Source: an uncultured Clostridia bacterium
GTDB lineage: Bacteria > Bacillota > Clostridia > Oscillospirales > Acutalibacteraceae
Assembly: GCA_946185345.1 (NCBI GenBank)
Contig: CAMHJC010000001.1
Span: forward strand, 486-64,485
DNA length: 64,000 bases
Reading direction: 5' to 3'
Made by a program: the position numbers and the translations under genes. Position 1 is the stretch's first letter. Each line of letters begins with the position of its first letter. Under the pieces are notes generated by a model. That model made no database searches, was not told the DNA's origin, and saw only the letters and a list, made by a program, of their open reading frames with translations. Below, one piece after another: positions 6,901 through 28,572 of the stretch.

Positions 6901-9900
6901 TGACGCTGACGGTAGGATTGGTCACGTCGATGTCGAGAGCCAGCTCCGCACTGCTTATGTTGCCTGCGTTGTCCATGGCTTCCACATAAACGACGACATT
7001 GCTGGAGTTGTTGAGCTGAGAATCGACGGTGATAGTAAAGGCGTCTTCATCGCTGTCCGGCGCTCTGGTGACGGACTGTGTTGCCTCTTGGTCGTCGGGA
7101 ATTACTTTGTAGGAAATCTGCTTGATGCGGGAACTGGGCAGATTGTCAAACAAATCGCTCGCAGCAATCTTCACTTCCACATCGCCGTTGTAAATATCCT
7201 GTTTTTCGACAGGCTCCACCGTGAGGGTCGGAGCTTTGTTGTCGACGGTGAATGATTCTTCGAATGACTCTGCGGCGTTGCCTGTGTTATCGGAGAAGCT
7301 GACACCGAAGGTGTATTTTGCGTCCTTGTTAAATGTGACGGTTGCCTTGTGTGTCGCTTCATCAGGCTTTCCTGCGACTTCTGTGGTCTCCCACTCGCTG
7401 ATTTCATAGGCGCCGTCAATGACGTTGCCATTGTGATCAAGGGCTTTGGTTTTGTTCTTGATGCCCGATGTAGCGGTTTCGGGATTGAAGTGAACGGTAC
7501 GCTCGGTAATGGTAACTTCAGCGGTTCTTCCGGTGAAATATCCGTCGGAAGCATCTTCGTTCTTTCTGTCGTCGGTAAATTGGACGTCAATCACGGGAGC
7601 GGTGGTGTCTATGTCAAGACCGAACATCGCTTCCTTGGAAGTATTGCCGCAATAATCCGTTGCCAATGCGTGTACCACAACATCGGAGGAATTGTTGGAA
7701 TCGGCTGATACAACCAGATTGACTGTATATTTGCCGGGCTTCTCTGTCTGAAGATCAATGGTTTCTTTCTCCTGCGTTGTCTGGCCATCGGCGGTCACCC
7801 AGTAGGAGATCGTTTTGATGCCGGAATACGCCTGAGCGGAGTGCTGGTCAACAACATCAATAATAACATTGACATCGCCGTTATAGCTCTCCTTGCTTTC
7901 TTCCGGAGTAATTGTCACGGAAGGCGGATCGTTGTCGATAATGAAGCCCTGGTCCGGAATGATGTACCGGTAGTTGCCCACCGTGTCGGTCAGCTTCAGA
8001 TAAACGATGAAGTTTTCCTTCTCCTTGGAGCTGTCAAATTCGAGGGGTGCTTTATACTCTTTGAATGTGAGCTTGTCGAGCGCTGCTCTGGCACTCTCCT
8101 CGGTATCGGCAACGACAGGAGTATTGGTCTTGCAGTATTCGATTCTGGCGGTGGTGGTTGCGTCCTCCGCTTCCGCTGTGACGGTAATGGTGTCGTGGCT
8201 GTAAAGACCGAAGGTGACAAACGATACAATGGCATCCCATGTCTTTTCCCAAATGGATTGTTCATCCTTGGTTTTGCCCTTGACGGTCATCTTGCCTGTC
8301 GGAGCGACGGTGTCCACCGTAAAGGGAGTGACGACCGGCTCCTTGACGAGCGATACATCCGCCTTGTTGGTGTAGGAAACCTTGACGGTGTAATTGGCGT
8401 CGGCCTTGAATCTGACGGTTGCGGTATGAGTTTTGCCTTTGTTTTCCCAGCTGATCATGGAGGCTTTGTCGATTGCGACAGTCTTGCCGGCCGCATCAAG
8501 CGCCGTTATGACAATGCCGTCCTGGGCGGCCTTCTGATCAAAGGTGAATTCTTCGTCGGTATAGGTGAGAACAAGCGTTCTGCCGTCTTTGTAATAATCT
8601 ACCCCATCGACGGAGGTCACCTTGCCTTTGGTGTCAAAGGAAGCGGTCACTTCGGGTTTCTGGGAATTGATGGCCACCGCATCGGAAGCCGAAACGATCA
8701 CGTTGCCGGCTTTGTCCTCCGCAACGACTACCACTCTCAGATTGCGGGTTGTGTTGTCATCGGCGGTGACGACAAGCGATTCATCCACCAGCAGGGGATC
8801 ATCAATCTTCACTTCGCCGGTTTTGGTGGCGGATTTGATCTGATCCTTGGCGGTCTTGCTTTCATCGTAATCCTTGATGACATAGTACCTGACGGATTTG
8901 ATTCCCGAGTGAGCCTTGTTCTCTTCGGGATCCTGAACCGTCAGTCTGAAATTCACATCGGAATGGAAGAATCCGTTGGAATTGGGTTCTTGGAGCTTCT
9001 TGATGGAGACGGTAGGCTTTGTCATGTCGATAATGACGCCGCTGGTGCTGATGTAAAGGGTATTGCCTGCCTTATCCGTGATACGGGCATAAACGGTGAA
9101 CTGTTCATCCTGTGTAAAGATGAAGGAATCATCGCTGAACTTGCCCTCTTTATACAGGGTCTCGAGATCCTCACCAAGAATGGCCTCCTCGGCGTCGGTT
9201 TTGTAATACTTAATGTACTGTATTTCGGAAAGATCGTCCTTCGCGTCGGTGACCTCAGCGGTGACCGGCTTGTTAACGAAAACATCGTATTGGAATTCGC
9301 CCGCAGCGGCAATCTTTGACCAGGTGAGACCGTTGACCGAGATGCTGCCTGTCGGAGCGGTCTTGTCGATGACGAAGGTCGCTTGGCTTACCGGATCGGC
9401 GGACATGCCTGCCTTGTTTGTGTAGGTGACGGTAAAGTCGGTGTACTTGCCTTCTTCGGAAAGGGTGAATGTACCGACCTTGTCTTTCCAGGTGACAACC
9501 ACATCGTGGCTGGCATTGTTGATTTTGGCGGTAACTTTAACGGCCGAAGGATTGAAGCAGTCGTCACTGTCGGTAATCGTTACGGTTCCGGTGCGTTCGC
9601 CGTTGTAGTAATTGGCAAGACCTTCCTCGTGCTTGCCGCCTTCCACGGAAACGGCGATTTCCGGCTTCTTGCTGTTGATATGGACGGCCTGCTTGGCTGT
9701 GACGACGTTTCCGGCACGGTCAGCCGCTTCCACGTATACAACCACGTTTTCGACGTTTCCGTATTCGGCTTCTGACAGGGTGACGGAATCCTCAAACACG
9801 CTGACTTCTTCGCCGTCGTAGGTAAAGAGTGTAGTCGCCTCTGTTTTCCCGGCGCCGGTTTCTATCCAGTACTTGACATAACTCAGATCGGAAGAAATCT

Positions 9901-11554
9901 CTCTGTCAGTAACCTTGACGGAAAGCTCCGCACTGCTGTTGAAGTATCCTTTTTCACAGTCGGCGGGAGAATTGGGATCAATCACTGCCTCCGGCTTGGT
10001 CTTGTCAAAGGCGATAACGAGATTGACCGACTTACCGTCAACCTTTACTTCACGCCAGCCAAAGTAGAAAATTCTGATTTTTTTGACGGTGCAGTCAGAT
10101 GTGATGACATACGAATTGTTTGCGCCCAAAAAATTGTGGATTTTCTTTGTTTCCTTGTCGGTGGTAACCTCAAACGCCACGTAATCCTTTGCGTTGAAGG
10201 TGACCTGCTTATCCTTGGCAAAAACATACTGGTTCTTGGCGCTGTTGAATTTGATACATTCGCTGCCGTTCCACTGAATCTGGCTGAAATCCATCGCCTC
10301 GGCTTTTTCAAACTTCACAGTGACAGCCTTATCCTCTGTTATTTTGCTGAGCTTGAGGGTCAGGTTGTTGTTGGCAAAATTCTCGTCAGGAGAAAGACTG
10401 TCCAGTTTGACCGCCTCTCCGTTGACGGAAACCGAGCTGACAACATAACCCGAATCAGGGATCAGTTTGACTGTAACCTCGGAATCGTCCCCATGCTCGA
10501 TCTGATTTCTGTCAATGGACACTTTGCCGTGTTCGCCCGATTCGGCGGTGATGTAGTACAGCTTGGCAACAAATCTGACTCTGACGGAAAAGTCCTTGTC
10601 CGAAGGCATGGAGAATTCATACTCGGTCTTGTTTCTGTCGGAATTTTCATTGTCGTCTGACTTCTTAAAGAGATCCTGGCCTTCGGGATGCGCTTCGTTA
10701 TAAACGATCACTCTGGAGATGCGCTTGCCTGCCTTTGCGGCAACCTTGACTTCGACTTCAGAGCCGGCCTTGGCGGAAACGCTGCCTATAGGACAATTGG
10801 CGGAATAATCGACAATTGTACCCTTCTGGCTGTCATATCGGATAGCGGCAACGTCTGTCTTCTCAAATTCCGTCTTGACCGTGGTATCGTCCGTTACGGT
10901 CAATGTTTCCTCGTACTTGGACTCGCCAAAGGTTTTGTCCTCGCCGTTGACTCTGATGCGAACGATGCGGTAGCCTTCCTTGGCGGTGACAGTCACCTTC
11001 GCCTTGACTCCGGTTTCGGATTCAAGCACGAAATCCTTACTCTTGGCCTCGCTGCCGTCTATCGCAAATGTACCCTGATCATCATTGCCCGTGACGGTCA
11101 GTTTGACATCTTTGGTAAACTTCACATCGACCTGCGTATCGGATTCCGCCTTGAAGCTGACTTGATTATCCTCAACCTTCAGGCTTTTGTCGCCGACGGT
11201 AACGCCTGCGATTTTCCATCCGCTGTCAGGTGTGAGCTTAAGCAGAACATCGGCGTCCTTCTGTAAGTTGGAAAGATCTGCGGTTTCACCGTTGACCGTC
11301 GCGGTAACAGAGCCTTTGCCCGTCTTATTCACGGTAACCTTCACCGCTGCCGAGACTTCAGGTTCTCCGCCTTCAGCAGGCTGGATTTCCGGAGTTTCTT
11401 CGGCATTGGCTTCTTTGGCTTCCTCTGTGGCGGGAGCCAAAGGTTCGGTGTCCGGACTTGCCCAGACTGTCGAAGGCATTGAGCCGACCAGCAGCATGAG
11501 AGCAAGCGCCGCAGACAATACCCTGTGAACAGTCTTGAACTTCAGTTCCTTCAT
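3992..11554 (-). CDS. Giant (2520 aa) surface protein with many Ig-like fold repeats, N-terminal signal peptide and C-terminal membrane anchor
   Basis: ATG 11554 follows GAGGAGA (complement of 11561-11567). The track start at 11620 adds 22 aa and has no RBS. Signal peptide is MKELKFKTVHRVLSAALALMLLVGSMPSTVWA. The linker motif [VI]D-x-[TKD]-x-P recurs at least 14 times (VDKTAPTG, IDMTKPTV, IDTTAPVI, IDVTNPTV and others), separating beta-rich modules with D.AGN motifs. C-terminal TM is LFIGSIVGVSVLLLGLIIFLLF followed by RRRK. No LPXTG motif. Confidence 0.85.
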   Translation of the reverse strand: MKELKFKTVHRVLSAALALMLLVGSMPSTVWASPDTEPLAPATEEAKEANAEETPEIQPAEGGEPEVSAAVKVTVNKTGKGSVTATVNGETADLSNLQKDADVLLKLTPDSGWKIAGVTVGDKSLKVEDNQVSFKAESDTQVDVKFTKDVKLTVTGNDDQGTFAIDGSEAKSKDFVLESETGVKAKVTVTAKEGYRIVRIRVNGEDKTFGESKYEETLTVTDDTTVKTEFEKTDVAAIRYDSQKGTIVDYSANCPIGSVSAKAGSEVEVKVAAKAGKRISRVIVYNEAHPEGQDLFKKSDDNENSDRNKTEYEFSMPSDKDFSVRVRFVAKLYYITAESGEHGKVSIDRNQIEHGDDSEVTVKLIPDSGYVVSSVSVNGEAVKLDSLSPDENFANNNLTLKLSKITEDKAVTVKFEKAEAMDFSQIQWNGSECIKFNSAKNQYVFAKDKQVTFNAKDYVAFEVTTDKETKKIHNFLGANNSYVITSDCTVKKIRIFYFGWREVKVDGKSVNLVIAFDKTKPEAVIDPNSPADCEKGYFNSSAELSVKVTDREISSDLSYVKYWIETGAGKTEATTLFTYDGEEVSVFEDSVTLSEAEYGNVENVVVYVEAADRAGNVVTAKQAVHINSKKPEIAVSVEGGKHEEGLANYYNGERTGTVTITDSDDCFNPSAVKVTAKINNASHDVVVTWKDKVGTFTLSEEGKYTDFTVTYTNKAGMSADPVSQATFVIDKTAPTGSISVNGLTWSKIAAAGEFQYDVFVNKPVTAEVTDAKDDLSEIQYIKYYKTDAEEAILGEDLETLYKEGKFSDDSFIFTQDEQFTVYARITDKAGNTLYISTSGVIIDMTKPTVSIKKLQEPNSNGFFHSDVNFRLTVQDPEENKAHSGIKSVRYYVIKDYDESKTAKDQIKSATKTGEVKIDDPLLVDESLVVTADDNTTRNLRVVVVAEDKAGNVIVSASDAVAINSQKPEVTASFDTKGKVTSVDGVDYYKDGRTLVLTYTDEEFTFDQKAAQDGIVITALDAAGKTVAIDKASMISWENKGKTHTATVRFKADANYTVKVSYTNKADVSLVKEPVVTPFTVDTVAPTGKMTVKGKTKDEQSIWEKTWDAIVSFVTFGLYSHDTITVTAEAEDATTTARIEYCKTNTPVVADTEESARAALDKLTFKEYKAPLEFDSSKEKENFIVYLKLTDTVGNYRYIIPDQGFIIDNDPPSVTITPEESKESYNGDVNVIIDVVDQHSAQAYSGIKTISYWVTADGQTTQEKETIDLQTEKPGKYTVNLVVSADSNNSSDVVVHALATDYCGNTSKEAMFGLDIDTTAPVIDVQFTDDRKNEDASDGYFTGRTAEVTITERTVHFNPETATSGIKNKTKALDHNGNVIDGAYEISEWETTEVAGKPDEATHKATVTFNKDAKYTFGVSFSDNTGNAAESFEESFTVDNKAPTLTVEPVEKQDIYNGDVEVKIAASDLFDNLPSSRIKQISYKVIPDDQEATQSVTRAPDSDEDAFTITVDSQLNNSSNVVVYVEAMDNAGNISSAELALDIDVTNPTVSVKFNNEAPYQVIDGRSYFAAERTATVTITERSNHFDPDAAVITVEAKDYKKNDVENTYEIVKNDDGGVKWVTTKGATPDEDTHVAVINFSGDANYTFGVDFTDMAKNPVVEKYNSLFTVDKTDPEGTIIAQAGEEGTKPQSWIENSTEMLFSLWSTISISFTKKASDLTAGVDSVKYYIDYFENGTRLNGEAESKYSDEELTALEKSGRIEWMDYEDFSIKAKEGNRHFVVYLKVTDRSGNFIYLSTDGLIVDDQLPEFESVAPIITLEPRKQPVNGIYNDDVRVDVTVVDPSKDNVYSGLKSVTYKVENLDNVKNNQETQKGKLFEFKGTLTQSSISAARTFKTTNDNFINVDKNKNNSNNVRITVYAVDNAGNKSEKSVDVKIDITKPEMTVSYDNNNVDSGKYFKANRTATIVVKERNFDPNAVKLSISNPHGFIPKLSGWKTVTAGGNGDGTTHTATLVYSEDGDYTFSMNCTDLAGNFNDKVSYNGVVPTEFTVDKTIPVVSVSYNVSGSTKKDSYFSTVVTATITIKEHNFSTDRIKTEITAIDRGSSKAAPSVSGWRNNGDVHTATVTFSNDAHYTFDIDFTDLAGNAAKDYEKDSFYVDRTSPEVIISVPAKPSNGDVRPSVVVKDTNLNKDNISVVLTKMDKQKKVSYSRSAKFNGEYEYDINYDNFTEEQSVDGIYKITATAKDKAGNSKTDSKVFYVNRFGSVYELSGIEDINNNYNQAGKDLVVTESVFGKLTDYSLELVKNDEHFVLEEDADYDLNVIDKGGRSSYTYSIHRDLFEDNGKYTLFFSSKDSAGNSNENIDEGKDAEISFIIDKLPPSIIPTNIESGETYASDGRNVAIEIKDNIALDTVRIYLIKGDKADDTRCTSGNEVKYETVGDLYKFNVPQSTEKQTLMIVAKDRSGRTKFENVEGFLITTNIFARWYNNTPLFIGSIVGVSVLLLGLIIFLLFGRRRKSESEE

Positions 11555-11684
11555 TGTTTTTCTCCTCACTTTTAGATTTTTTTGTACCGGGTTTCCGAAA
11601 AGCCGGCATGCGCACGACAAAACCTGCGGCGGGCAACCGCAAGCCTGTCACGGCCATTCTGCCGCTTTTGGAACATGAGCCGGG

Positions 11685-12210: not shown

Positions 12211-13017
12211 TCATTCTATAACTTCGTCAGTGTGTATTTCCACCATGCTTCTCACTATGCGGAAGGAAACGGCGGCAGGATTGACGGGCTGCTCGGATAC
12301 GCCTTCCAGCACGGTAGTGCCTGCGCCCCGGTCTTCCCCGGAAAGCTCCGTGAGCTCCACGGCATCCGAGCCGGTGAGCAGAGCGGTTCCCTCTTCGTGG
12401 AGAGCCTCTTTGCTTCCCGTGAGAAGGGCGGTTCCTTCATCGGAGCAGATGCCTTTGGTGCTGTTGCCCGTGAGCAACGCCGTACCTTCCTGATCGTCAT
12501 CCGGCGCACCCATCGTTTCATATTCATTAGGTTCGGGAAGCTTCTGTGTCGGGGGACGGTTGGAAATTGCGGACTTTTCTCCGTAAAGCTCGCCGGTGGT
12601 CGGCTCCTCTTCCTCCGCAGAATAACCCGCCTGTTTAAACGCCTGCGGATTCAGCGATTCGCTGGTCTTGTCGAGTCTCTTTGAAGCGTGCGCAACAGGA
12701 ACGGCGCCGGGGGCCGGTACTCCGTATGCCTGAACGGAAGGCGCGGACATATTGGACGGCATGGCGCCTGAATTGCCGACCTGCTGTGTCAGCTTGCCTC
12801 TGGCAGCATTGACGCTGCTCGGACGGTGAAGCTTGGCGCCGCTCGCCGAATTATTCTCACGCATGGCCTTGATCTCACGGGCGACTGTTTTGCCCGTAAG
12901 ATCACCGATAACGGACGGAATCTTAAGCTTGATGAATATCAGGATTGCCGCTATCAGCGCTATTCCCGACAGCAAAAAGCCTACTATCGAAATGATATTC
13001 CAGGTTTGTGCGCTCAT
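12211..13017 (-). CDS. Bitopic membrane protein with a disordered tail carrying reiterated E-G-T-A-L-L-T-G motifs
   Basis: N-terminal TM is IISIVGFLLSGIALIAAILIFI. The Pro/Ser-rich tail has 3 x EGTALLTG and 1 x AGTTVLEG (aa 177-239). It is 2 nt from the kinase gene stop. Confidence 0.7.
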   Translation of the reverse strand: MSAQTWNIISIVGFLLSGIALIAAILIFIKLKIPSVIGDLTGKTVAREIKAMRENNSASGAKLHRPSSVNAARGKLTQQVGNSGAMPSNMSAPSVQAYGVPAPGAVPVAHASKRLDKTSESLNPQAFKQAGYSAEEEEPTTGELYGEKSAISNRPPTQKLPEPNEYETMGAPDDDQEGTALLTGNSTKGICSDEGTALLTGSKEALHEEGTALLTGSDAVELTELSGEDRGAGTTVLEGVSEQPVNPAAVSFRIVRSMVEIHTDEVIE

Positions 13018-13019
13018 AA

Positions 13020-14783
13020 TCAGTTCTCCTTATTTTTAAATGCGTTGGCAATGGCTTTTCTGGCGACGGGCAGTTTCTCCTTGACCTTGTCTACTTTAGG
13101 ATTAAAGCTCTCGTCGTTGGACGTTACTTCGTCAATCTCCCTCAGATAATCCTCCACAGAATCCAGAAGATCGGTCATTTCTTTCCTGGACACGTTATCT
13201 CTGCTGAATTTATGGGCATACTGAATGATGGTCGACACCGTCAGACGGCAGGCCTCCAGATCCATTACCTCATCGTCGGCATTGTCTTTTCTGGCTTCTT
13301 CCACAATCAGGCTGATATTCTTCCACTGATTTTTAAAGGTATTCTGCGGAATATCTCCTTCTTCAAGCTGGAACTCGATCGAAGAGATGAAATCACCGGT
13401 CTGGTTAAAGAGCTTTGCCTTGTAATAAAATTCGTCGCTCTTGGAAGAATGTGATACGGCTTCGCCGAACCAATAGGTGGCGCTTTTTCTGCGGGTGATA
13501 TCGTTTTCGGAACTGTTCCCGTTCTCATCCTGGCCGTAATCATAATAACCCCAGTACAGCTTTCCGATCTCATAAGAAAGCTTGCCGTAAAAATCGGTTT
13601 TATTGAGCCAGCTGAGGCTTCCCTGTTTATTGTCGGATTGATTGGTGTCCTGATTTTCGTCATCCTTGAGGTGCAGCACATTCAGCAGCACCTTCTCCTC
13701 ATCCTGGGTGAAGGATCTGTCTGCCTTAAAGGTATCGATCAGTGTGAAATAGGCATCGCTTCTGTCGGGAATGATTTTGATGGCGTTGGTGTAGTACTCC
13801 ACCTTTTTATCGTAATCGCTTTCCTCATTGCCGAGCCGGAAATTATTGTCGTAGTCCTTGTCGTTGATATATGTCTTCATGACAAGACCGACAATGCCCA
13901 CTATCAGAAACAGCAGGCAGGCGGCAGAAGTCGCAATGAAGGCCCCCAGCTTTTTCTTTTGAATTTTTCTGTACGCTGCGCCGTTTTCATGATAATGCTG
14001 CAGCGCATAAAGCAGCTCGGCGCATGACTGGTATCTGTCATTGGGATTGAGCTGTGTACACTTTTCGATAATGGCCTCAAAGCCCGGATCGAGCTGCGGA
14101 TTCCAGTATCGGATGGGATAGATTTCATAAGGCGGTTCACACGGATTTTTACCGGTAACCAGATGATACAGCGTAACGCCGAGACAGTACACATCGGTAC
14201 GGGCATCGGTCTGGCCCTTGCCTCCGAACTGTTCCGGAGCGGCATAGCCCTTGGTGCCGAGACTCACCGTATCGGCAAGGCTGTGATCCTTGTATTCACG
14301 GGCGATACCGAAGTCGATGATCTTGATGTTGCCGTCAGGTCTGAGCATGACGTTGGACGGCTTCATATCACGGTAAATGATAGGAGGCTTGCGGGTGTGG
14401 AGATACTCGAGCGCTTCGCATATCTGCATGGCCCACTCGATAACAAGCTCCTGAGGCTGCGCACCGTTCTGCTTGAGAATGGTGTTGAGCGTTTCGCCTT
14501 CTATGTAGTCCTCGATGATGTAAATGTAATTCGGATCCTCTAAGATATCCACGATTCGCACGATGGCGGTATGATCCAGCTGCTTAATCATATTGGCCTC
14601 GGCAATGGCGCTCTGGACAACGATTTCGTTGGCCTTGTCCCTCGTCTTTTTCGGCACTATCTTGATGGCCCACTGTTTATTGAGGCGCCTGTCTCTTGCG
14701 AGAAACACCTCGGACATGCCGCCTTTGCCTATCGACGTAAGTATTTCGTACTTGTCGTCAATGACTTGTCCCACAAAGTTCAA
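13020..14783 (-). CDS. Transmembrane Hanks-type Ser/Thr protein kinase with helical (TPR-like) extracytoplasmic domain
   Basis: G-loop GKGGMSEV, WAIK lysine, catalytic loop YRDMKPSN, DFG, AAPE. One TM (FIATSAACLLFLIVGIVGLV). About 290-aa C-terminal non-PASTA domain. Confidence 0.9.
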   Translation of the reverse strand: MNFVGQVIDDKYEILTSIGKGGMSEVFLARDRRLNKQWAIKIVPKKTRDKANEIVVQSAIAEANMIKQLDHTAIVRIVDILEDPNYIYIIEDYIEGETLNTILKQNGAQPQELVIEWAMQICEALEYLHTRKPPIIYRDMKPSNVMLRPDGNIKIIDFGIAREYKDHSLADTVSLGTKGYAAPEQFGGKGQTDARTDVYCLGVTLYHLVTGKNPCEPPYEIYPIRYWNPQLDPGFEAIIEKCTQLNPNDRYQSCAELLYALQHYHENGAAYRKIQKKKLGAFIATSAACLLFLIVGIVGLVMKTYINDKDYDNNFRLGNEESDYDKKVEYYTNAIKIIPDRSDAYFTLIDTFKADRSFTQDEEKVLLNVLHLKDDENQDTNQSDNKQGSLSWLNKTDFYGKLSYEIGKLYWGYYDYGQDENGNSSENDITRRKSATYWFGEAVSHSSKSDEFYYKAKLFNQTGDFISSIEFQLEEGDIPQNTFKNQWKNISLIVEEARKDNADDEVMDLEACRLTVSTIIQYAHKFSRDNVSRKEMTDLLDSVEDYLREIDEVTSNDESFNPKVDKVKEKLPVARKAIANAFKNKEN

Positions 14784-14798
14784 TGCTCTTCAACCTCC

Positions 14799-15572
14799 TC
14801 AGACTGCCTTAATCAGCAAAGCCGTTATGTTGTCGTTTTCGTGACGGTATTTATTCAGATCAATCAGCTGCACGATATGCGACTCCATCTCCTGCTCTGA
14901 GTGATTGACAGACGGGCCGAGTGTCCTGGCAATTTCCTCCGCCGTGATCTCGTGGCGGAAGCCGTCCGAACAGAGCATATAACATTCTCCGGAATTCGCC
15001 CTGCCGTAATAGAAGGCCGGCTCGACTGTCCTTGAAGCGCCTACGCACTGAAGAAGCACATTCCGGCGGGGATCCTTTTCGGCCGCTTCGGGAGTAAGTC
15101 TGCCCTTCTGAATTTCTCTGGCGACAAGGGTCTGATCCTCGGTAAGCACTTCGGCGTTGGAATCGGTGATGCGGTAGGCTCTGGAATCGCCCACATGACC
15201 GATAATATACCTTCCGTTTTCGAGAATCAGCATGGCGGTCACGGTAGAACCCAGCTGAATGCGAAAACGCTCACCGTATTCCGAAATAATCTGATTCTGC
15301 TGCCGGATCATCCTTCCCCATGAATAGGCCACGTCTCCGATGACGTTATCGCCTGAGAGAAATGCAGGGAATTCATTTTCGAACCAGTCGCAGAAAGCTT
15401 TGATCACGGCAGCGCTCGCCACTTCGCCCTTGGACAATCCGCCCATACCGTCACAAATGACTGCGAGAAGGATATTTCCCTTGTCGGTGACGGCCTGCTT
15501 GATGCAGCAGCTATCCTGATTTGTTTTTTTCTGAATGCCTACGTCTGTACTTAACGAGAGGTTAAATTCCAT
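14799..15572 (-). CDS. PP2C-family Ser/Thr phosphatase
   Basis: Motifs TDVGIQKKTNQDS, CDGMGG, VGDSRAY, LCSDGF and DNITALLI. Confidence 0.9.
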   Translation of the reverse strand: MEFNLSLSTDVGIQKKTNQDSCCIKQAVTDKGNILLAVICDGMGGLSKGEVASAAVIKAFCDWFENEFPAFLSGDNVIGDVAYSWGRMIRQQNQIISEYGERFRIQLGSTVTAMLILENGRYIIGHVGDSRAYRITDSNAEVLTEDQTLVAREIQKGRLTPEAAEKDPRRNVLLQCVGASRTVEPAFYYGRANSGECYMLCSDGFRHEITAEEIARTLGPSVNHSEQEMESHIVQLIDLNKYRHENDNITALLIKAV

Positions 15573-15584
15573 TTAAACACCTGC

Positions 15585-16892
15585 TTATTCAACGTAAAAT
15601 GTAAATTTTTCATTTGCCAGAAGTATCTCAGAACCCGAAAAGACTTCCACTTCGGTTTCTCTTTTAATCACTCTGCCGTCAACATAGGTTTTGTTGGTGG
15701 AATTTTTATCCACCACATAGAAGTGATTTCCTCTGGTGACGATATCCGCATGGCTTCTGCTGACATAACTGTTGTCCGACACGAAATAATCGCAGTACTC
15801 TCTTTCGCTGCCTATGCGGAACACCGGTTTATCCACCGGTATTTTCTCACGGCTCTTTTCCCTGATAAGGTAAGGATAAGCCGGCGCAGGCAGTTCGTCA
15901 CACCCCAGCACCACGGTGCCTCGTCTCTCGTTGTATCCAAGAACAACCGTACCCGAAGGAGGCGCCTGGCCGGCCGCCGGATCGGGATCAATCTGATCCC
16001 GGACAGGTGTCGGAACCTGATTCCGTGTCTGAACAGGAGACGGAGCCGGAGTCTCAGCCGGAGTCTGAGCGGCGCCTTTGTCGGATACTCCGCCGGCGGT
16101 TCTGCCGCCGTTGACGCCGTTCGGTTTGACCAGCGGCTTGCCGCAGAAGGAACAGTAGCTGGATTCGATGGTGTTTTTTGTGCCGCAGTACATACAGAAA
16201 AGCGTGCGTCTTTTTTCTTCGATGATCTTTATCCTTCGCTTTTCGTCAAAGGGGTTGTATTCGATTCCCTGAGGAGTCTCACGGCTTTTCTGGTCCTTCG
16301 GTTTTTCTCTGAGCTGATCGGAAGGCGCCTGATAACTGTATTCTTCTTTTCTGCCCATCAGATACTTAATCAGACGCTGGAAATTATTGATGGAAAAAGG
16401 CGCTCCGCTGCTGAAGAAGGCGTAATAGCTGTTGAGAAAGCCCATGTTTTCTCCCGGAATGAAGCTGAAAAACCCCGGCAGCTGATGAAAGAACAAGCCC
16501 TTTTCCTCGTAATTATAATTATTCAGAACCGGCCAAAGTATACATCTGACGGTACCCTGCGGATCAAGAAAAATTCTGTCCGGATCCAGGTCAATATGAT
16601 TGCTGCTCAGTCCCAGATCCTCACATTTTTTGATGATATTGATCAGCTGATCCACTACCTTGAGGAAGTAGGTTTTGTTGACAGAGTACCCGTTATTGTG
16701 CGACACAGGATTCAGTCCCTGCACAATACACTCAAGCACGGTTGTCTTGCCGCTCTTTTTTACGATGACCGGCAAAAAGGCCCCCAGCGAAGAGCTTACA
16801 TTCAGTTCCCGTTCATATAATACTTCAGGATATGTAAATTTATTTGTTATGATGATTCTGCCTGATGTGATTTTTGTCGTTATTTTACTCAA
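15585..16892 (-). CDS. Pseudokinase-like N-domain + zinc-ribbon + Pro-rich linker + C-terminal FHA domain protein
   Basis: The N-domain has a degenerate catalytic-loop-like stretch NHIDLDPDRIFLDPQGTVRCILWP. Zn ribbon is CMYCGTKNTIESSYCSFCG. The linker carries SGTVVLG and RGTVVLG. FHA motifs are FRIGSE, SRSHA and STNKTYVDG. Confidence 0.8.
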   Translation of the reverse strand: MSKITTKITSGRIIITNKFTYPEVLYERELNVSSSLGAFLPVIVKKSGKTTVLECIVQGLNPVSHNNGYSVNKTYFLKVVDQLINIIKKCEDLGLSSNHIDLDPDRIFLDPQGTVRCILWPVLNNYNYEEKGLFFHQLPGFFSFIPGENMGFLNSYYAFFSSGAPFSINNFQRLIKYLMGRKEEYSYQAPSDQLREKPKDQKSRETPQGIEYNPFDEKRRIKIIEEKRRTLFCMYCGTKNTIESSYCSFCGKPLVKPNGVNGGRTAGGVSDKGAAQTPAETPAPSPVQTRNQVPTPVRDQIDPDPAAGQAPPSGTVVLGYNERRGTVVLGCDELPAPAYPYLIREKSREKIPVDKPVFRIGSEREYCDYFVSDNSYVSRSHADIVTRGNHFYVVDKNSTNKTYVDGRVIKRETEVEVFSGSEILLANEKFTFYVE

Positions 16893-18010: not shown

Positions 18011-19519
18011 TTACATTGCGCCGGTGATAGTTGATTCCACCGCATCAAATTCCCTCGCCGTATCATTCAGATAGGATACGCACGACGCCAGCAGTCCGCT
18101 TCCGTTGGTTCTGATGTCTGCCGCCATTAGATTCCATTTATCAAAAAGATTCAGGGCGGAATACAGTCTGTCCATCCTGTCGTCTATGGATACCAGTTTT
18201 TTGTTGATTCCGGCCAGTTTAGTGGCATATTTTGTCAGCTTGCCCGTATCCACTCTGATTTCGGTGTAGGACTGGGCGTAGATGTATCCTTTGTTGAAGT
18301 TGGAATTATACCACTCTTTGATGTTATTATAAATAGTCTGGATGGCGTCTTTGAATTCCCTGACTTTTTGCTTTGTCCAGTTGTACGCGGTTTCGAGCAT
18401 ATTGGCAACGCCTTCGATCACGTTGTTGATGAATTCCGTTACCGCCTCGTAAACGTATTCATAGGCATATGCCACAATCGCCGCCACGATGATGGCCGCC
18501 ACCTCCGCCATGATGAGCGAAGTGATATTGAGTTCCGTGAGAACAAGAATGGTGCCTATCAGATTAATCACGCCGTTAACCGAAATATTGCCGTCTTCAT
18601 CATACAATATATCAAGTCCGGCGGTTGTGACAATCATCAGATCAGCCGCAATCCATTTGATCTTGTTTCCGATAATCGAAGGCATATGGTCCACGCCGAG
18701 GGAAATCTTCTGCGTGATCCTGGAAAGGGTGTCCTGTTCGCCTTCGACCAGCGAATCGCCGTCGTAATCAAGATATTTTGTATCATGCCGGTTAAATGAA
18801 TTATATTTGTCGTCGTCCCTGTTTCTCACAGCCACATAGTGATACTCGCAATCCGGCAGGTCATTGAGCAGGTTGCCGACAAAGCTCCACCGGTAATGCT
18901 TCATTTTGGGACTCATATGGGCGATCTTATCCTTGTATTTTTTCAGAAACTCGCCCGAAAAACCAGGGCCGTCGAGACTGACGCACTGTGTGATATTTCC
19001 GTCGAGGCCGTACTCTTCCGAGACGATGGTGGCGTATTCCGCCAGATTGCCGCCCAGTGAATGGCCGGTCATACAGAGTTCATTATATCGGCTCAGAAGC
19101 TCCTTGTTTCTCTTCAGAAAATTTCTTACCTCACGCTGCTGCTTTGTGCAGGTCTCATTGATCAGCAGGATATCGGCTTCCGTCCAATCATGGATACCGT
19201 TGGCCAGTGAGGTGAGAGCTTCACTTCCTCTGAAGCCGACCACGCCGGCGCCGTCCGGCGTCTCCATCACGCAGCAGCTGAAGCCGTTTTTGTCATTGGT
19301 ATCGTGAACGGCGACGATTTTCCAGTCGTCGATATCACTGGCAAGCTCGTTTTTGATATAGTTGTAAATCCTCAGATTGTCTCCTGTCAGTCTTTTGGCA
19401 ATTTCCTTGAAGGTGAAGCTGGCGTTTTTTCCCATTTTTTCCATTGCTTCCTGAAAGAAGGAATCGAGATGCATATACGCCACCTGAGAGGCGGCCACCA
19501 TTCTTTTATCCGACTGCAT
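18011..19519 (-). CDS. Putative T7SS lipase/esterase effector 2: N-terminal alpha/beta-hydrolase (DUF2974-like, GHSLGG) + hydrophobic middle + C-terminal LXG-like helical domain
   Basis: Nucleophile elbow is GHSLGGNLAEY. Hydrophobic stretch is IMAEVAAIIVAAIVAYAY. The C-terminal about 110 aa (IRVDTGKLTKYATKLAGINKKLVSIDDRMDRLYSALNLF...) is homologous to the tail of the 20262-21773 product. Confidence 0.7.
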   Translation of the reverse strand: MQSDKRMVAASQVAYMHLDSFFQEAMEKMGKNASFTFKEIAKRLTGDNLRIYNYIKNELASDIDDWKIVAVHDTNDKNGFSCCVMETPDGAGVVGFRGSEALTSLANGIHDWTEADILLINETCTKQQREVRNFLKRNKELLSRYNELCMTGHSLGGNLAEYATIVSEEYGLDGNITQCVSLDGPGFSGEFLKKYKDKIAHMSPKMKHYRWSFVGNLLNDLPDCEYHYVAVRNRDDDKYNSFNRHDTKYLDYDGDSLVEGEQDTLSRITQKISLGVDHMPSIIGNKIKWIAADLMIVTTAGLDILYDEDGNISVNGVINLIGTILVLTELNITSLIMAEVAAIIVAAIVAYAYEYVYEAVTEFINNVIEGVANMLETAYNWTKQKVREFKDAIQTIYNNIKEWYNSNFNKGYIYAQSYTEIRVDTGKLTKYATKLAGINKKLVSIDDRMDRLYSALNLFDKWNLMAADIRTNGSGLLASCVSYLNDTAREFDAVESTITGAM

Positions 19520-19523
19520 GCCG

Positions 19524-20243
19524 TCACGCTCCTATTGATTCTTCCATTTCGGCAGGCGTCACCGAACTGACGCCGTTATCTATCAGCACATTCTGCATTC
19601 CGAGCGGATCATAATTCTGAATGGCTGCCAGCGTCACGCCGGGATAATCCTCCATCTCCTGCCGGCAGGGTTCATAGGCATCCTCCCGCATGGCAAAAAC
19701 CAGTGCGCCCAGGTCGATCTCCAAAGATTTCCCTGTGTCGATCAGAGCGTTCAGCACCTTTTCGCCGTAATTATCTCCCGGAATAAATATCAGCCGCACA
19801 TGGAACCGCTCTATGCCGTGCCTGCTTAAGAATTCACTGACGCTGATGCCGGTATCGGTTTCACTGACGCTGTCGGCTATATACACTTCAGAAGCGCCGG
19901 TCAGGCCTGACTTCTGAAGATGGCCGTCAATCACTCTCTCCACTTCACGGCATTTGAGAGCGGTGACGTAATTTTCCGTAATGGTGCCGTCCTTGTCAAT
20001 GGTGGCGGTAAACACCAGATCGGGGTCGTTTTTGGGAACAATGTAAAGAAGCGCATGGCTTGTATTCAGTCTGTCGCCGATGTGTGTCGCGGTAAATTCG
20101 CAGCCATAGACATTTTCCAGATAACTGCACACCTTGTCAGCCGTAGGTTGATTGATTTCCAGACATGCGCCCATTCCGATCATCATGCCCAAAGCCATAA
20201 TAATTCCTCCGATACGAATGATAATCCGACTCATTTTTTTCAT
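19524..20243 (-). CDS. Lipoprotein, putative immunity protein (paralog of 21787-22446)
   Basis: Lipobox in signal MKKMSRIIIRIGGIIMALGMMIGMGAC. Shares YLENxY..(K/E)F and GT(I/F)(T/S)(E/D)NY motifs with the other lipoprotein. Its stop is 4 nt from the effector 2 start. Confidence 0.65.
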   Translation of the reverse strand: MKKMSRIIIRIGGIIMALGMMIGMGACLEINQPTADKVCSYLENVYGCEFTATHIGDRLNTSHALLYIVPKNDPDLVFTATIDKDGTITENYVTALKCREVERVIDGHLQKSGLTGASEVYIADSVSETDTGISVSEFLSRHGIERFHVRLIFIPGDNYGEKVLNALIDTGKSLEIDLGALVFAMREDAYEPCRQEMEDYPGVTLAAIQNYDPLGMQNVLIDNGVSSVTPAEMEESIGA

Positions 20244-20261
20244 AACAAGTCCCTCGTAAGA

Positions 20262-21773
20262 TTAACCAAATGATTTGATGATGTTGTTTTCCACATTTTC
20301 AAATTCCTGCGCCACATCGTTAAGATAATCGCCGCAGGCCTTCAGCTTTCTGCTGTACTCAGTGGTAACATCCGCGCTGAGAAGCTTGAGCCCGTCAAAC
20401 AGATTGAGCCTGAAATACAGTCGGTCCATATCACGGTCAATGGTATCCAGCTGACCGTTAATTTCCGCAATTCTGTCACAGTAGCGATAGAGCTTGCCGG
20501 TATCCACCCGAATCACCGTACCTGCCTCTGCGACCATCCGCTCGATCCTTCCGGATTTTTTATTATACCAGTCTACTACCTTGTTGAAAAAGTCGGTAAT
20601 TTTTTTCACATTCTGCTTGATCACATCAAAGGGAAGTTTCACGATATCGACTACCAGATTTTCAACCAAAAGCGAAAGGTTGTCAATTTCGACTCTGAGA
20701 TTGACCAGTGTTTTATCGTCAATCGTAAAAGGACTTGTCATGACGATGCCCAGAATGATTCCGCCGATGTCCGCCAGCGTATTCGTTATCGTACCGATCA
20801 CCGGTATGTCGGAAACCAGCGCCAATCCCACTGTAATATTATGGAGCCACTTGCAAACCTCTTCCTGCTCCACATACGCTTCCTCCCGGAAGTTGCCGTT
20901 TTCGTCAAAGCTGCCGTTTCTGTCGGCATAGGTGAGTATGCCGTAGCTGCCGTGATTGAATATGGCGTCTTCGGCTCTTTCGTTGTCCGTCATATCCTCC
21001 TTGTGCTTTTTATTCCGATCGGGAATGCCGGTATGGGCATCTTCCAGATCGGACTTGGAGCCATGACCGCTGTCGCTCTTGACATATACGGTTTCTCCGG
21101 CTATATCTATCAGCAGGATATCGACAAAATCCTTGGAGCCGTTGATATTTTTGATCTTGTCCTTGTTGCGCGCGATCTGCCGGTCATAGCCCTGGACAAA
21201 CTCCTTGCTGAATCCCTGGCCTTCATACGAAACGCACCTGTCAATCTTGTCTCCGCAGACAATGGTCACATACATCGCCTGATTGCCGCCGTTTGAATGG
21301 CCTGTGACATCCATATGGTCATACGGAAGCGATCTGATGTACTCCGCCGCGGCCTCCTGCGATTTCTGGGACATATCCCCGTAACCGTGCGTATTGTTGT
21401 TCCATTGTTCGCTTGATCCGCCGGTGCCTCGGAAGGCCACCGTCACATCCCCCGAAGGCTCAACAAAACAGGCGGCACGTATTCCGCCGTAATCCTTTTG
21501 TGTAGGATACGTGACCTTCAGACTGCACAGCTTGTCGTCCTTCAGAATCTCCTCGAACAGGTGCTTGACAGCGGGAAGATCCGATTCCAGACCTCCCGAA
21601 AGGCTCCTGGAGCGACTGCCGAAAATCTTTTCGATCTTCTCCATGGAAACGCTGCCGTCCTCATTCTGGAATTCCGCCAGAATCTTGCCGAGAGGCTTAT
21701 TGTAATGGCAGTCTGTAAGATCGGTGTACATCAATGTATCAAGTAAAAGCATCTGTCGTTCTGACAAAGCCAT
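20262..21773 (-). CDS. Putative T7SS lipase/esterase effector 1 (same architecture as 18011-19519)
   Basis: Nucleophile elbow is GHSNGGNQAMY. The C-terminal tail VIRVDTGKLYRYCDRIAEINGQLDTIDRDMDRLYFRLNLF... is paralogous to effector 2. Confidence 0.7.
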   Translation of the reverse strand: MALSERQMLLLDTLMYTDLTDCHYNKPLGKILAEFQNEDGSVSMEKIEKIFGSRSRSLSGGLESDLPAVKHLFEEILKDDKLCSLKVTYPTQKDYGGIRAACFVEPSGDVTVAFRGTGGSSEQWNNNTHGYGDMSQKSQEAAAEYIRSLPYDHMDVTGHSNGGNQAMYVTIVCGDKIDRCVSYEGQGFSKEFVQGYDRQIARNKDKIKNINGSKDFVDILLIDIAGETVYVKSDSGHGSKSDLEDAHTGIPDRNKKHKEDMTDNERAEDAIFNHGSYGILTYADRNGSFDENGNFREEAYVEQEEVCKWLHNITVGLALVSDIPVIGTITNTLADIGGIILGIVMTSPFTIDDKTLVNLRVEIDNLSLLVENLVVDIVKLPFDVIKQNVKKITDFFNKVVDWYNKKSGRIERMVAEAGTVIRVDTGKLYRYCDRIAEINGQLDTIDRDMDRLYFRLNLFDGLKLLSADVTTEYSRKLKACGDYLNDVAQEFENVENNIIKSFG

Positions 21774-21786
21774 TGTTACACACTCC

Positions 21787-22446
21787 CTATCTTATTACAG
21801 TATTCAAAGGCGGTACGGAACTGTAGCTGTCAACATACTGATCCACGCTTTCCTGACTGTCCAGCGCTCCGTACTGCTCCGGAGCAAGCGGATATAACGC
21901 CACATAGCCCCCGAAATGCTCCGACTGAAGATCAGAACAGACAGCATCAAAAAGCTTCTGATCCTGTCCGGCTGACGACGGAACGAGAATGTGGATGTCC
22001 GTCCTGAAATGCTCGGGATATCTGACACGATAGCTGTCGAAGTCGTCCATATCCACCGCTTCGTCCGGAAAATAGGACGAAGTGAAATAAAACGTAAATT
22101 TCGCATCCTGTATATGCCTGTTCAGGATGGTCTGTATTCTGTCGCGGCAGACGGCTTTTGCCATAATGCCGTAATAATTATCTGAAAATGTCCCGGAATC
22201 CCGACACACTACTATTTTCTCGTTTGGATATGCGTCAGAAGAAAAAAGGATCTCAGCGTAAGGTATATCCATGCTCGGATAAATCACCGTCACCAGGTCA
22301 AACTTCTGATGGTATTTGTTTTCCAGGTATTTCTGCGCCTCACCCGCAAAATCGTAATTCTTATCCATACAACCGCTCACTCCCGAAATCAAAATTATCG
22401 CTACGGTCAGAAAAATACTTATGATTGATTTTCTTGCCAAATTCAT
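21787..22446 (-). CDS. Lipoprotein, putative immunity protein
   Basis: Lipobox in signal MNLARKSIISIFLTVAIILISGVSGC. Lies immediately upstream of effector 1. Confidence 0.65.
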   Translation of the reverse strand: MNLARKSIISIFLTVAIILISGVSGCMDKNYDFAGEAQKYLENKYHQKFDLVTVIYPSMDIPYAEILFSSDAYPNEKIVVCRDSGTFSDNYYGIMAKAVCRDRIQTILNRHIQDAKFTFYFTSSYFPDEAVDMDDFDSYRVRYPEHFRTDIHILVPSSAGQDQKLFDAVCSDLQSEHFGGYVALYPLAPEQYGALDSQESVDQYVDSYSSVPPLNTVIR

Positions 22447-22575: not shown

Positions 22576-22884
22576 TTATCTGAATGCTTCAGCAATGCTG
22601 ATATTCTGTGCTTCAGCGGCGTCATAACCTTCGGCTACATTGGCTCTGAGGAATTTGACATATTCGTTGATGATATCCTCGTACAGCTGGAAGAACTTTG
22701 AGGCAAACTCATTGTATGCGTCAATGGTGGAAGCGGAAGCTTCACCTTCCCAGATATTTGCCAGATGATCTACGGTTTCCTTGCTGCGCTGGAGCTCTTC
22801 TGTGAGCTTTTTATTCAGACTTTCAAGCTGGCTTGCGATCTCAAGCACTTGATCTGTACTTATTCTGATACTGTTACCGGCCAT
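22576..22884 (-). CDS. esxA: WXG100 protein (EsxA-like)
   Basis: 102 aa. Central IWEGEA (WXG) motif, two-helix layout, GGAGG-type RBS. Confidence 0.85.
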   Translation of the reverse strand: MAGNSIRISTDQVLEIASQLESLNKKLTEELQRSKETVDHLANIWEGEASASTIDAYNEFASKFFQLYEDIINEYVKFLRANVAEGYDAAEAQNISIAEAFR

Positions 22885-22906
22885 GTAATTTCACCTCCGT
22901 AAAAAA

Positions 22907-23212
22907 TTAGTTTGTCAGCTTACCTACCTGTGTGATGTTGTCATCCTGACGGGCAACATAGTTGGCTCTCTGCTTGTCAAGCGCTTCGCTTGCAAGAGCG
23001 AGCTTCTCCGCCATTTTCTTCAGCTCCTCGGTAAAACCGGTAATGCGCTGAACATAAGCGAGATTGTCAGCACCGTCCCAGGCGCTGCCCATGGTGCTTG
23101 CAGCCTGCATCAGCTGAGTGTAAATCTGTGTATAATTCTCGGAACTTGCGCGAAGCTTCTGCGACGCGGCAGCCATCTCCTCAAATGATGCAACATAGAT
23201 TGTTTTTCCCAT
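22907..23212 (-). CDS. WXG100 protein (second paralog)
   Basis: SAWDGAD motif. ATG 23212 follows AAAGGAGAA; the track start is 23233. Confidence 0.8.
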   Translation of the reverse strand: MGKTIYVASFEEMAAASQKLRASSENYTQIYTQLMQAASTMGSAWDGADNLAYVQRITGFTEELKKMAEKLALASEALDKQRANYVARQDDNITQVGKLTN

Positions 23213-23241
23213 AACAAGGTTCTCCTTTCGCAAAAATTGAA

Positions 23242-23499
23242 TTATATCAGCATGAGCCGGGAGCCGTTATGTATGCCAAGCTCCGCAACAATCATGTTAA
23301 TATTGTAAATAATGCCTGTGTCGGCGTCGCACAATACCGCATCACGCGACGCCTTGTATTCTCCTCCGGAGAGATCGCTGAGCGCGCTTGCGACAAGCTG
23401 CACAACTTCGCTCATTCTGCTCTCGAGAGGAATGAACACGTCAAATGTTTCTCCCGACGCGGGAACGGATATTTCAACCAAAGCTTTGTTACTCAGCAT
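23242..23499 (-). CDS. esaB: YukD/EsaB-like ubiquitin-fold T7SS protein
   Basis: 85 aa. The pattern ...FDVFIP....M.EV.......L......(long loop)....L.ELGI.NGS.LMLI is typical of YukD. Overlaps the essC stop by 11 nt. Confidence 0.75.
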   Translation of the reverse strand: MLSNKALVEISVPASGETFDVFIPLESRMSEVVQLVASALSDLSGGEYKASRDAVLCDADTGIIYNINMIVAELGIHNGSRLMLI

Positions 23500-28530: not shown

Positions 28531-28570
28531 GCAAAAAATCCCATCGACGTTAGTCGACAGGATTTTTTGC
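28531..28570. terminator. Bidirectional hairpin terminator downstream of the tRNA cluster
   Basis: GCAAAAAATCC...TCGAC-GTTA-GTCGA...GGATTTTTTGC, with A/T runs on both sides. Confidence 0.6.
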
Positions 28571-28572
28571 TT

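Follow-up and report, generated by a model that had tools for sequence, protein, structure and literature searches.

A kinase, phosphatase and FHA-protein cassette in a T7SSe operon of an uncultured Clostridia bacterium: a candidate phosphothreonine switch

The closest described relatives of the locus studied here are the T7SSe loci among the type VII secretion systems (T7SS) of Garrett, Higginson & Palmer (2024; PMC11217815), for which the components TseA1 and TseA2, TseB to TseD, TseF, and TseH to TseK were listed and a cluster was named in Neobacillus sp. 114. According to the same paper the FHA domain of the ATPase TseC retains the phosphothreonine-binding consensus, unlike that of T7SSb EssC, the T7SSc kinase TscD combines an EssB-like topology with an intact active site, and 'reverse' lipases occur in T7SSe loci (PMC11217815). 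The Esr pathway, also composed of kinase, phosphatase and FHA protein, was found experimentally to control Esx secretion in Schaalia, one copy acting post-translationally (2026 preprint, Wang et al., PMC13622651). Here we analysed a stretch of 64,000 nucleotides from an uncultured Clostridia bacterium (the window), in which three adjacent genes on the minus strand (13020-16892) encode a Hanks-type kinase, a PP2C phosphatase and an FHA protein. Our results point to a reversible phosphothreonine switch in a T7SSe, built as a six-gene cassette in which the trio is joined by TseH, a small polytopic membrane protein and the giant surface protein TseI, and we regard this reading as moderately probable. 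The original prediction made for this DNA had put forward the phospho-switch by analogy with the type VI secretion system (T6SS) and knew of no established T7SSb gated by Ser/Thr phosphorylation; phosphorylation control by that analogy was already proposed for these systems in 2024 (PMC11217815).

The open reading frames (ORFs) of all three genes were present, and they lie within a tightly packed same-strand operon of 24 kb, which runs from EssC as the first gene to a 2542-aa surface protein with intergenic gaps of 2-130 nt and some overlapping genes (Table 1). The ATPase gave clear TIGR03928 and FHA matches, so the trio is embedded in a T7SS operon whose ATPase bears an FHA domain, as had been predicted. 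Two core WXG100 genes and a YukD-like gene directly follow the ATPase gene (22576-23499), as in the described T7SSe, and no Pfam or NCBIfam family for EssA, EssB/YukC or EsaA/YueB was detected in the operon proteins, the window outside the operon not having been scanned protein by protein. The N-terminal FHA domain of TseC, at about aa 125-205, carries the canonical phosphothreonine-binding residues (R139, S153-x-x-H156 and S173-T-N175-G-T), and the GR, SxxH and STNGT signatures were kept in 25/26 aligned orthologues. T7SSb, to which the locus had been assigned in the original prediction, was rejected on these grounds; from its sequence the locus is a T7SSe, with the trio corresponding to TseJ, TseF and TseD. 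It shares with the described T7SSe a Bacillota host, the TseC FHA domain, two WXG100 proteins, a YukD-like TseB, the transmembrane kinase TseD, the PPM phosphatase TseF, a TseJ with DUF6382 and FHA domains, a TseH with a single transmembrane helix, a giant TseI that has a signal peptide, Ig repeats and a transmembrane segment at its C-terminus, 'reverse' lipase cargo, and the gene order of the Neobacillus locus L001. One difference concerns the slot of TseK, where the window protein has 3-4 hydrophobic segments and one transmembrane helix was reported.

The kinase TseD matched Pfam Pkinase with E=6.5e-55 over a kinase domain at aa 12-252, and GKGGMSEV (aa 19), AIK (39), YRDMKPSN (137), DFG (157) and APE (182) were all found in place. 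A single hydrophobic segment at aa 277-308 precedes an ectodomain at aa 309-587, and the C-terminal 288 aa formed an all-helical repeat in the AlphaFold2 (AF2) model (pLDDT 83.7). Pfam, motif positions and model therefore agree with the predicted kinase with all catalytic motifs, one transmembrane helix and a helical extracytoplasmic domain. An alignment of 74 kinase homologues showed no variation in the glycine loop, at K41, YRD-D139, K141 and N144, in DFG, at Pro and Glu in the APE motif, or at T172 and T177 of the activation loop; the C-helix residue Glu62 was E in 70/74 with D in the other 4, and APE began with Ala in 67/74. The activation loop reads D-T172-V-S-L175-G-T177, and L175 was kept in 71/74 homologues (T172-x-x-L175), giving the same T-x-x-L-G spacing as in the candidate sites described below. 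In one homologue of 889 aa (P0127), part of the kinase domain, the transmembrane helix and part of the ectodomain are duplicated internally; this may reflect a genuine tandem duplication or an error of assembly.

The phosphatase TseF, likewise predicted as PP2C, matched PP2C_2 (E=5e-11) and the NCBIfam Stp1/IreP-type model (E=1.6e-48, below the model's cut-off). Its metal-binding residues D20, D41, D203 and D247 are intact, and the metal ligands were invariant in 79 homologues. Because the catalytic residues are strictly invariant in the 74 kinases and 79 phosphatases, selection appears to act on reversible catalysis, and both TseD and TseF are predicted to be active enzymes under selection.

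TseD had further been proposed as an active analog of EssB. The bitopic topology fits this proposal, but a Foldseek search of the Protein Data Bank (PDB) with the ectodomain model returned TPR proteins at best (E=0.016, TM scores 0.2-0.3), with no EssB/YukC chain in the top 50. Homology between the TseD and EssB ectodomains was rejected on these weak, TPR-like matches, and judging from the model TseD resembles EssB in topology only.

The modelled structures place the EssB-like part of the system on TseJ. This protein matched FHA (E=7.7e-14) and Zn_Ribbon_1 (E=4e-5, just under the cut-off), and was homologous over its full length to more than 100 DUF6382+FHA proteins; the window protein alone reached 17.6 bits against the 26.7-bit DUF6382 cut-off, whereas its homologues all matched DUF6382 clearly. 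At E<=1e-3 the DUF6382 family counts 4405 representatives. The string NHIDLDPDRIFLDPQGTVRCILWP, quoted in the original prediction, is present in the 435-aa protein, and inspection of hydrophobicity found no transmembrane segment, as expected of a soluble protein. An AF2 model of the N-domain, built from 19 sequences, consisted of a lobe with five strands and, after it, a helical one (pLDDT 86, pTM 0.83). Its leading Foldseek matches in the PDB were the TraF N-domain of the pIP501 type IV secretion system (T4SS) (8cba, E 4e-7, TMq 0.54), the YukC/EssB pseudokinase (6z0f, E 7.5e-6, TMq 0.53) and the Bacillus subtilis T7b core unit (9qks_C, E 1.4e-5, TMq 0.56), the next being true kinases and the kinase-homology domain of MviN (3uqc, Rv3910). 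TraF was itself recently shown to be an EssB homologue (PMC13037476). Since the DUF6382 family alignment contains no invariant Lys or Asp, the domain is taken as pseudokinase-like, and the earlier description of a degenerate, EssB-reminiscent kinase-like N-domain with a zinc ribbon and an FHA domain was supported. Residues S378, R379, H381 and N400 of the FHA domain were invariant in an alignment of 83 sequences. The linker just before it holds two nearly invariant G-T-T-V-L-G motifs, kept in 75-79/83 sequences, which in the window read GTVVLG and include T315 and T326.

Such Thr-x-x-Leu motifs were found in much greater number in TseH. The window protein starts with an N-terminal transmembrane helix followed by basic residues, from which its tail is expected to be cytoplasmic, and the tail contains EGTALLTG three times and AGTTVLEG once (T179, T196, T211 and T234). 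Homologues carry tandem [A/G]-T-E-V-L-S repeats; among 74 of them derived from the loci described below, the median was 8 Thr-x-x-Leu motifs per protein versus 1.8 in composition shuffles, and for 58/74 at most 5 of 500 shuffles equalled the observed count. A set of 120 database homologues gave a median of 10 versus about 2 when shuffled, the motifs lying in the distal half of the tail with the consensus N-[A/G]-T-E-V-L-S. For a count that does not depend on Thr, the residue preceding [ETDA][VIL]L was tallied in TseH tails: it was Thr in 792/809 cases (98%) and Ser in 2, in tails composed of 13.6% Thr and 10.6% Ser. FHA domains are specific for phosphothreonine (pThr) and show a hydrophobic preference at pT+3. 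A reader of this kind would demand Thr strictly, together with Leu at +3, and the arrays of TseH and of the TseJ linker are candidates both for phosphorylation by the kinase and for binding by FHA domains. The original prediction had named the 268-aa and 435-aa proteins as possible substrates, and both carry conserved motifs that could serve as such. The TseH C-terminus is also conserved (FRIVRSMVEIHTDEVIE; F-x-I-V-...-(I/V)-H-T-D-E-(V/I)-I-E) in both T7SS-linked and Tad-linked homologues, and it may act as a docking peptide.

To see how far the cassette is conserved, a TseJ profile was run on one genome per species, which yielded 80 loci whose six-frame ORFs were searched with the window proteins; the closest species-representative TseJ was 42% identical. 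The order EssC, YukD, two WXG100 genes, variable cargo, DUF6382/FHA protein, PP2C, kinase, a protein of ~220 aa, in some cases one of ~160 aa, and a giant Ig protein was recovered in Neobacillus sp. Marseille-Q6967 and in gut metagenome contigs from Clostridia, the FHA proteins of these loci being 30-40% identical. At 30-60% identity the trio stands beside the same T7SS genes in many Bacillaceae and Clostridia, and TseI orthologues occupy the equivalent position in about 60 loci. In about 70/80 loci the FHA protein is found together with the PP2C, the kinase and a protein of the 268-aa type, most exceptions being contig ends; the real exceptions are L023, L024, L026 and L082. Taken together, the domain E-values and the synteny across dozens of species are far beyond what chance would produce. 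EssC or YukD was found within 10 kb upstream in 32/80 species loci and WXG100 genes alone in 5 more, while 27/80 had neither T7SS nor Tad pilus genes detected within reach. Co-occurrence with essC, which had been suggested earlier as a check, was seen in a part of the loci, some others having a Tad operon in its place.

Three of the exceptional loci (L023, L024, L026) hold DUF6382-FHA genes without an adjacent PP2C or kinase; one such solo copy lies ~6 kb downstream of the T7SSe cluster of Neobacillus sp. Marseille-Q6967, and others are EssC-linked in Rossellomorea aquimaris and Bacillus sp. EB01. The fourth, L082 (61-16721; an Acutalibacteraceae metagenome-assembled genome), carries Tad genes and after them a DUF6382-FHA gene (627-codon stop-to-stop ORF), PP2C, EssC, YukD and two WXG100 genes, with no kinase detected at the locus. 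Its arrangement is similar to the published T7SSf and points to a continuum between Tad and T7SS loci.

From these observations a working mechanism can be proposed. A cell-surface signal, perceived by the TseD ectodomain and/or TseI, would activate TseD, which would autophosphorylate its activation loop at T172/T177 and phosphorylate two sets of Thr-x-x-Leu motifs, those on the cytoplasmic TseH tail (usually about 10, but four in the window) and the two on the linker of TseJ. The pThr-x-x-Leu sites would be read by the canonical FHA domain of TseC and by that of TseJ, gathering the soluble EssB-like TseJ module and the ATPase at the membrane on a multivalent scaffold, where the secretion complex would assemble or be activated; TseF would then strip the phosphates and reset the system. 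A conditional, phosphorylation-dependent contact would in this way take the place of the constitutive one between EssB and EssC(FHA) in T7SSb, and it may gate secretion. Because TseC keeps a canonical FHA domain, at least the ATPase would be expected to read the signal directly in T7SSe.

The same logic is known from the T6SS, where threonine phosphorylation (PpkA/PppA/Fha1 in Pseudomonas, TssL phosphorylation in Agrobacterium) also relies on a membrane Hanks kinase, a PP2C and an FHA protein, and where the phosphorylated membrane component recruits the FHA protein and thereby activates the machine. We regard this as analogy and not homology: the machine is unrelated, the host is Gram-negative and the sensor domains are different, whereas here the secretion ATPase itself bears an FHA domain and the candidate substrate has a multi-site Thr-x-x-Leu array. 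No T6SS core gene was found in the operon, a TagH-type FHA match reaching 22 bits against a 120-bit cut-off. With T7SSb EssB/YukC, and also with pIP501 TraF, the locus shares a kinase-like fold without catalytic motifs and an FHA-bearing EssC, and the YukC pseudokinase dimer is reported to bind the YukB FHA domain (Oka et al. 2025, cited in PMC13037476). EssB is, however, membrane-anchored with its own ectodomain and contacts EssC independently of phosphorylation, whereas the pseudokinase-like domain here is soluble and fused to FHA, and the transmembrane helix and ectodomain are on a separate, catalytically intact kinase. The FHA domain of T7SSb EssC also lacks the phosphothreonine-binding residues that the window TseC has.

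Likened by its described parts, the Esr pathway of Actinomycetales has an Ig-repeat surface protein, a Ser/Thr kinase, a phosphatase and an FHA output protein that is Thr-phosphorylated in a disordered linker, and it is often found beside T7SS genes and sometimes apart from them. It differs in belonging to Actinomycetota and in the N-domain of EsrG, which is a pseudophosphatase and not a pseudokinase; the MoxR ATPase, the vWA protein, the transglutaminase and the beta-propeller-tipped EsrA that Esr requires were not found among the operon proteins by Pfam and NCBIfam. The mycobacterial MviN-FhaA pair similarly brings together a pseudokinase, a PknB-type kinase and an FHA reader in a phosphorylation-dependent complex (PMC12599244), but it controls peptidoglycan synthesis, with another domain arrangement and a single phosphosite.

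Several observations weigh against a phosphothreonine switch dedicated to T7SS assembly. In structure DUF6382 matches EssB moderately, with a TM of about 0.53-0.56 and an rmsd of 6-7 A, and no sequence link accompanies the match: a PDB-sequence profile search at E<=10 was empty, and Pfam at E<=10 gave only DUF6382 and no YukC. A relationship at sequence level was therefore rejected, leaving the fold comparison as the only link. The TseJ FHA domain is without the canonical 'GR' Arg, which is Lys in 73/83 sequences, and the window protein, differing in this from other T7SSe, has Ser362 there, unique among the 83 (the others have Lys, Thr or Ala). The window TseH motifs, four in total, are of an atypical T-A-L-L type, again a departure from the T-E-V-L of other T7SSe, and the arrays could serve another purpose. 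In the searched literature no experimental work on T7SSe was found. Further points come from the genomic contexts. A Tad pilus operon stands directly upstream of the cassette in 16/80 species loci. When metagenomes were scanned with Tad-linked TseH-like proteins as the anchor, 80 further loci were obtained, and all 40 of those analysed (at least 15 kb each) had Tad genes followed by the TseF, TseD, TseH, optional TseK and TseI genes, with a TseJ-like match in 38; no EssC, YukD or WXG gene was seen in any of them, including 1.4-5 kb past TseI. In three loci (L058, L060, L065) the cassette adjoins, in its upstream 10 kb, a divergent pair of a LytTR response regulator and a GHKL histidine kinase, with no EssC within reach. 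Given these Tad and LytTR contexts, EssC is not the only output of the cassette and may not be its direct one.

In the locus L056 the Tad genes (TadZ, CpaF-type ATPase, TadB, TadC, prepilin peptidase, TadE and DUF5702 by Pfam) are followed without a gap by genes for DUF6382-FHA, PP2C and kinase, and then by those for a TseH-like protein and for a TseI-like protein of 2330 aa. More generally, the Tad-linked cassette occupies the 3' end of complete Tad operons and comprises DUF6382-FHA, PP2C, kinase, the transmembrane protein with the Thr-x-x-Leu array, the small polytopic protein and the giant Ig protein. The Tad-linked TseH-like proteins retain E-T-T-V-L-type repeats, at a median of 5.5 motifs as against 10 in T7SS-linked ones, a descriptive comparison that ignores phylogeny. 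Hosts with all six genes are gut Lachnospiraceae, Oscillospiraceae and Acutalibacteraceae (L055-L081, e.g. L056:1-21377; L086-L165, e.g. L110 and L160). An EssC gene hidden downstream of TseI was considered for these loci and rejected, as the 1.4-5 kb past TseI in the metagenome loci are without T7SS genes. In L060 and L065 the cassette also has as a neighbour a ~1000-aa protein in which a microbial PARG domain is joined to a GDSL lipase and to another Ser/Thr kinase domain. As the 2024 study took EssC for its anchor, Tad-linked cassettes would have escaped it.

These contexts make an autonomous surface-sensing module around TseI the main rival, with transcription, display of TseI or adhesion, or some component in common with Tad pili as its possible output in place of T7SS assembly, and with the T7SS linkage due to co-regulation or shared ecology, as for the stand-alone Esr1 in Actinomycetota. 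Besides the Tad-linked blocks and the neighbouring LytTR/GHKL systems, the zinc ribbon on TseJ is in its favour, as EsrG variants often have zinc fingers and Esr1 acts transcriptionally (PMC13622651). Against this, the T7SSe ATPase keeps a canonical phosphothreonine-binding FHA domain and so equips a T7SS component for direct reading, no DNA-binding domain was detected in the cassette proteins by Pfam and NCBIfam scans, the DUF6382 fold is closest to the T7SS and T4SS scaffold pseudokinases EssB and TraF, and the T7SS-linked TseH proteins have about twice as many motifs as the Tad-linked ones. We consider this rival unlikely, though a serious competitor. A less likely account still is that TseD and TseJ serve chiefly as structural subunits of the core in place of EssB, with constitutive or incidental phosphorylation and no switching role: the bitopic topology that TseD shares with EssB and TraF (PMC13037476), the EssB-like fold of TseJ and the operon lacking detected EssB, EsaA and EssA would suit it, but the invariance of the catalytic residues argues for selection on reversible catalysis, the presence of a dedicated phosphatase would be difficult to understand without switching, and the substrate-like arrays are Thr-specific. 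We therefore hold this account to be improbable.

That the trio might be a housekeeping PrkC/PrpC (Stk1/Stp1)-type unit adjoining the T7SS by chance, a refutation foreseen in the original prediction, was suggested by the best NCBIfam matches, PknB_PASTA_kin and Stp1_PP2C. In the test with the equivalogs NF033483/NF033484, though, the kinase reached 235 of the required 450 bits with only its catalytic domain aligned (model positions 2-273 of 563), and the phosphatase 165 of 230 bits; no PASTA repeats were found in the Pfam scan, the ectodomain being a helical repeat, and the kinase family retains its cassette partners in about 70/80 species loci. With sub-threshold scores, no PASTA and conserved synteny, this explanation was rejected and is extremely improbable. 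The related concern about unrelated neighbours stood in part: synteny with the T7SS is kept, yet the cassette also follows Tad operons. We therefore retain the reversible phosphothreonine switch in T7SSe as the preferred reading. A broader version of it, which we put forward tentatively, is that TseJ-F-D-H-(K)-I constitutes a portable 'contact-to-assembly' cassette serving T7SSe or Tad pili in gut and soil Bacillota. A surface signal would pass through the Ig filament and the kinase ectodomain to a multivalent pThr-x-x-Leu array on a tail-anchored scaffold, where FHA readers would recruit the soluble EssB-like adaptor and, in T7SSe, also the ATPase; EssB-type scaffolding would become conditional on phosphorylation, and TseI would be a sensor and not a secretion conduit.

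The features of the window are collected in Table 1. Just upstream of the operon, the terminator-like hairpin and the promoter-like site together delimit the start of the 24-kb unit. Next to the main cassette genes, the 173-aa polytopic protein is the only candidate for the TseK slot and may be the TseK counterpart, although one transmembrane helix would be expected; genes of this size occupy the equivalent slot in L002 and L003, and weak homologues were found in the same slot of Tad-linked cassettes. TseI has a signal peptide, many Ig-like repeats (Big_13, Flg_new_2, Big_3_3) and a C-terminal transmembrane anchor, with hydrophobic stretches at aa 34-53 and 2508-2535. The variable cargo region contains two paralogous Mbeg1-like/Lipase_3 proteins of ~500 aa, each after a lipoprotein, and Mbeg1-like proteins occur at the equivalent place in L001 and L002; the pairs are probably 'reverse-domain' T7SS lipase toxins with their immunity proteins, as for TslA-type effectors, and the three small helical proteins are probable secretion partners of the cargo. 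The window motifs T-A-L-L in TseH and T-V-V-L in TseJ, where T-E-V-L and T-T-V-L are usual, occur alongside Ser362 of TseJ, and these changes may represent co-variation of reader and ligand. Antisense ORFs were noted opposite TseJ (15723-16820, plus strand, 365 aa) and opposite EssC (24101-25834, plus strand, 577 aa), and are probably mechanical.

Table 1. Coordinates of the operon, its protein features and flanking signals in the window
Feature	Position	Strand	Evidence or remark
Terminator-like hairpin	28527-28574		Strong, 20-bp stem; ~400 nt upstream of the promoter-like site
Promoter-like site, TTGACA-17-TAAAAT	28137-28165	-	Just 5' of the EssC ORF; 11/12 sigma-70-like match; consensus match only
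TseC/EssC ATPase, 1541-aa ORF	23489-28114	-	TIGR03928 1074 bits; FHA E=1e-17; FtsK_SpoIIIE; true start may be Met25
TseB, YukD/EsaB-type ubiquitin-like, 85 aa	23242-23499	-	PF08817 E=2e-6; position shared with L001-L004
TseA1, WXG100, 108 aa	22907-23233	-	PF06013 E=6e-8
TseA2, second core WXG100, 102 aa	22576-22884	-	PF06013 E=3.6e-8
Variable cargo region	18011-22446	-	Two Mbeg1-like/Lipase_3 proteins, a lipoprotein before each
Predicted lipoproteins	21787-22446 and 19524-20243	-	Candidate immunity proteins, one before each lipase-like gene
Mbeg1-like/Lipase_3 proteins	20262-21773 and 18011-19519	-	PF11187 E=1.6e-12 and 3.7e-15; C-terminal helical regions
Three small helical proteins, 105, 111 and 108 aa	16953-18066	-	Two WXG100-like, PF06013 E=8.6e-6 and 3.8e-6
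TseJ, 435 aa	15585-16892	-	DUF6382, zinc ribbon, FHA
TseJ DUF6382 kinase-like pseudokinase fold (predicted)	16344-16892		aa 1-183
TseJ zinc ribbon	16131-16199		aa 232-254
TseJ G-T-x-V-L-G motifs	15906-15950		Two, conserved; T315, T326
TseJ FHA domain	15588-15845		aa 350-435
TseF, PP2C/PPM phosphatase, 257 aa	14799-15572	-	PP2C_2 and Stp1/IreP-type matches
TseD, Hanks Ser/Thr kinase, 587 aa	13020-14783	-	Pkinase match, transmembrane helix, helical-repeat ectodomain
TseD hydrophobic segment	13860-13955		aa 277-308
TseH-like membrane protein, 268 aa	12211-13017	-	N-terminal transmembrane helix and disordered cytoplasmic tail
TseH Thr-x-x-Leu motifs	12307-12483		T179, T196, T211, T234
TseH conserved C-terminus	12211-12261
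Polytopic membrane protein, 173 aa	11685-12206	-	3-4 hydrophobic segments; slot between TseH and TseI
TseI, giant surface protein, 2542-aa ORF	3992-11620	-	Probable start at the MKELKF Met, 11554

The bioinformatic hypothesis of phosphorylation control is thus already published; what is added here are the putative Thr-x-x-Leu sites, the structural link between TseJ and EssB, and the Tad-linked cassette. The 2024 paper mentions neither Thr-x-x-Leu arrays, on which its supplement is also silent, nor a kinase-like fold of DUF6382 or cassettes without EssC (PMC11217815), and the literature searched, which was incomplete, held no report of the arrays, the DUF6382 pseudokinase fold or the Tad-linked cassette. 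Loci of the T7SSe type are common among Clostridia of the human gut and Bacillaceae of soil. The analysis offers concrete targets for mutation, namely the TseH Thr-x-x-Leu arrays, T315/T326 of TseJ and T172/T177 of TseD, and culturable hosts such as Neobacillus niacini (L011), N. notoginsengisoli (L007) and Caldifermentibacillus hisashii (L012) allow direct testing. The sharing of the cassette with Tad operons argues against TseI being a T7SS-specific conduit and favours a general module for surface sensing and control of assembly.

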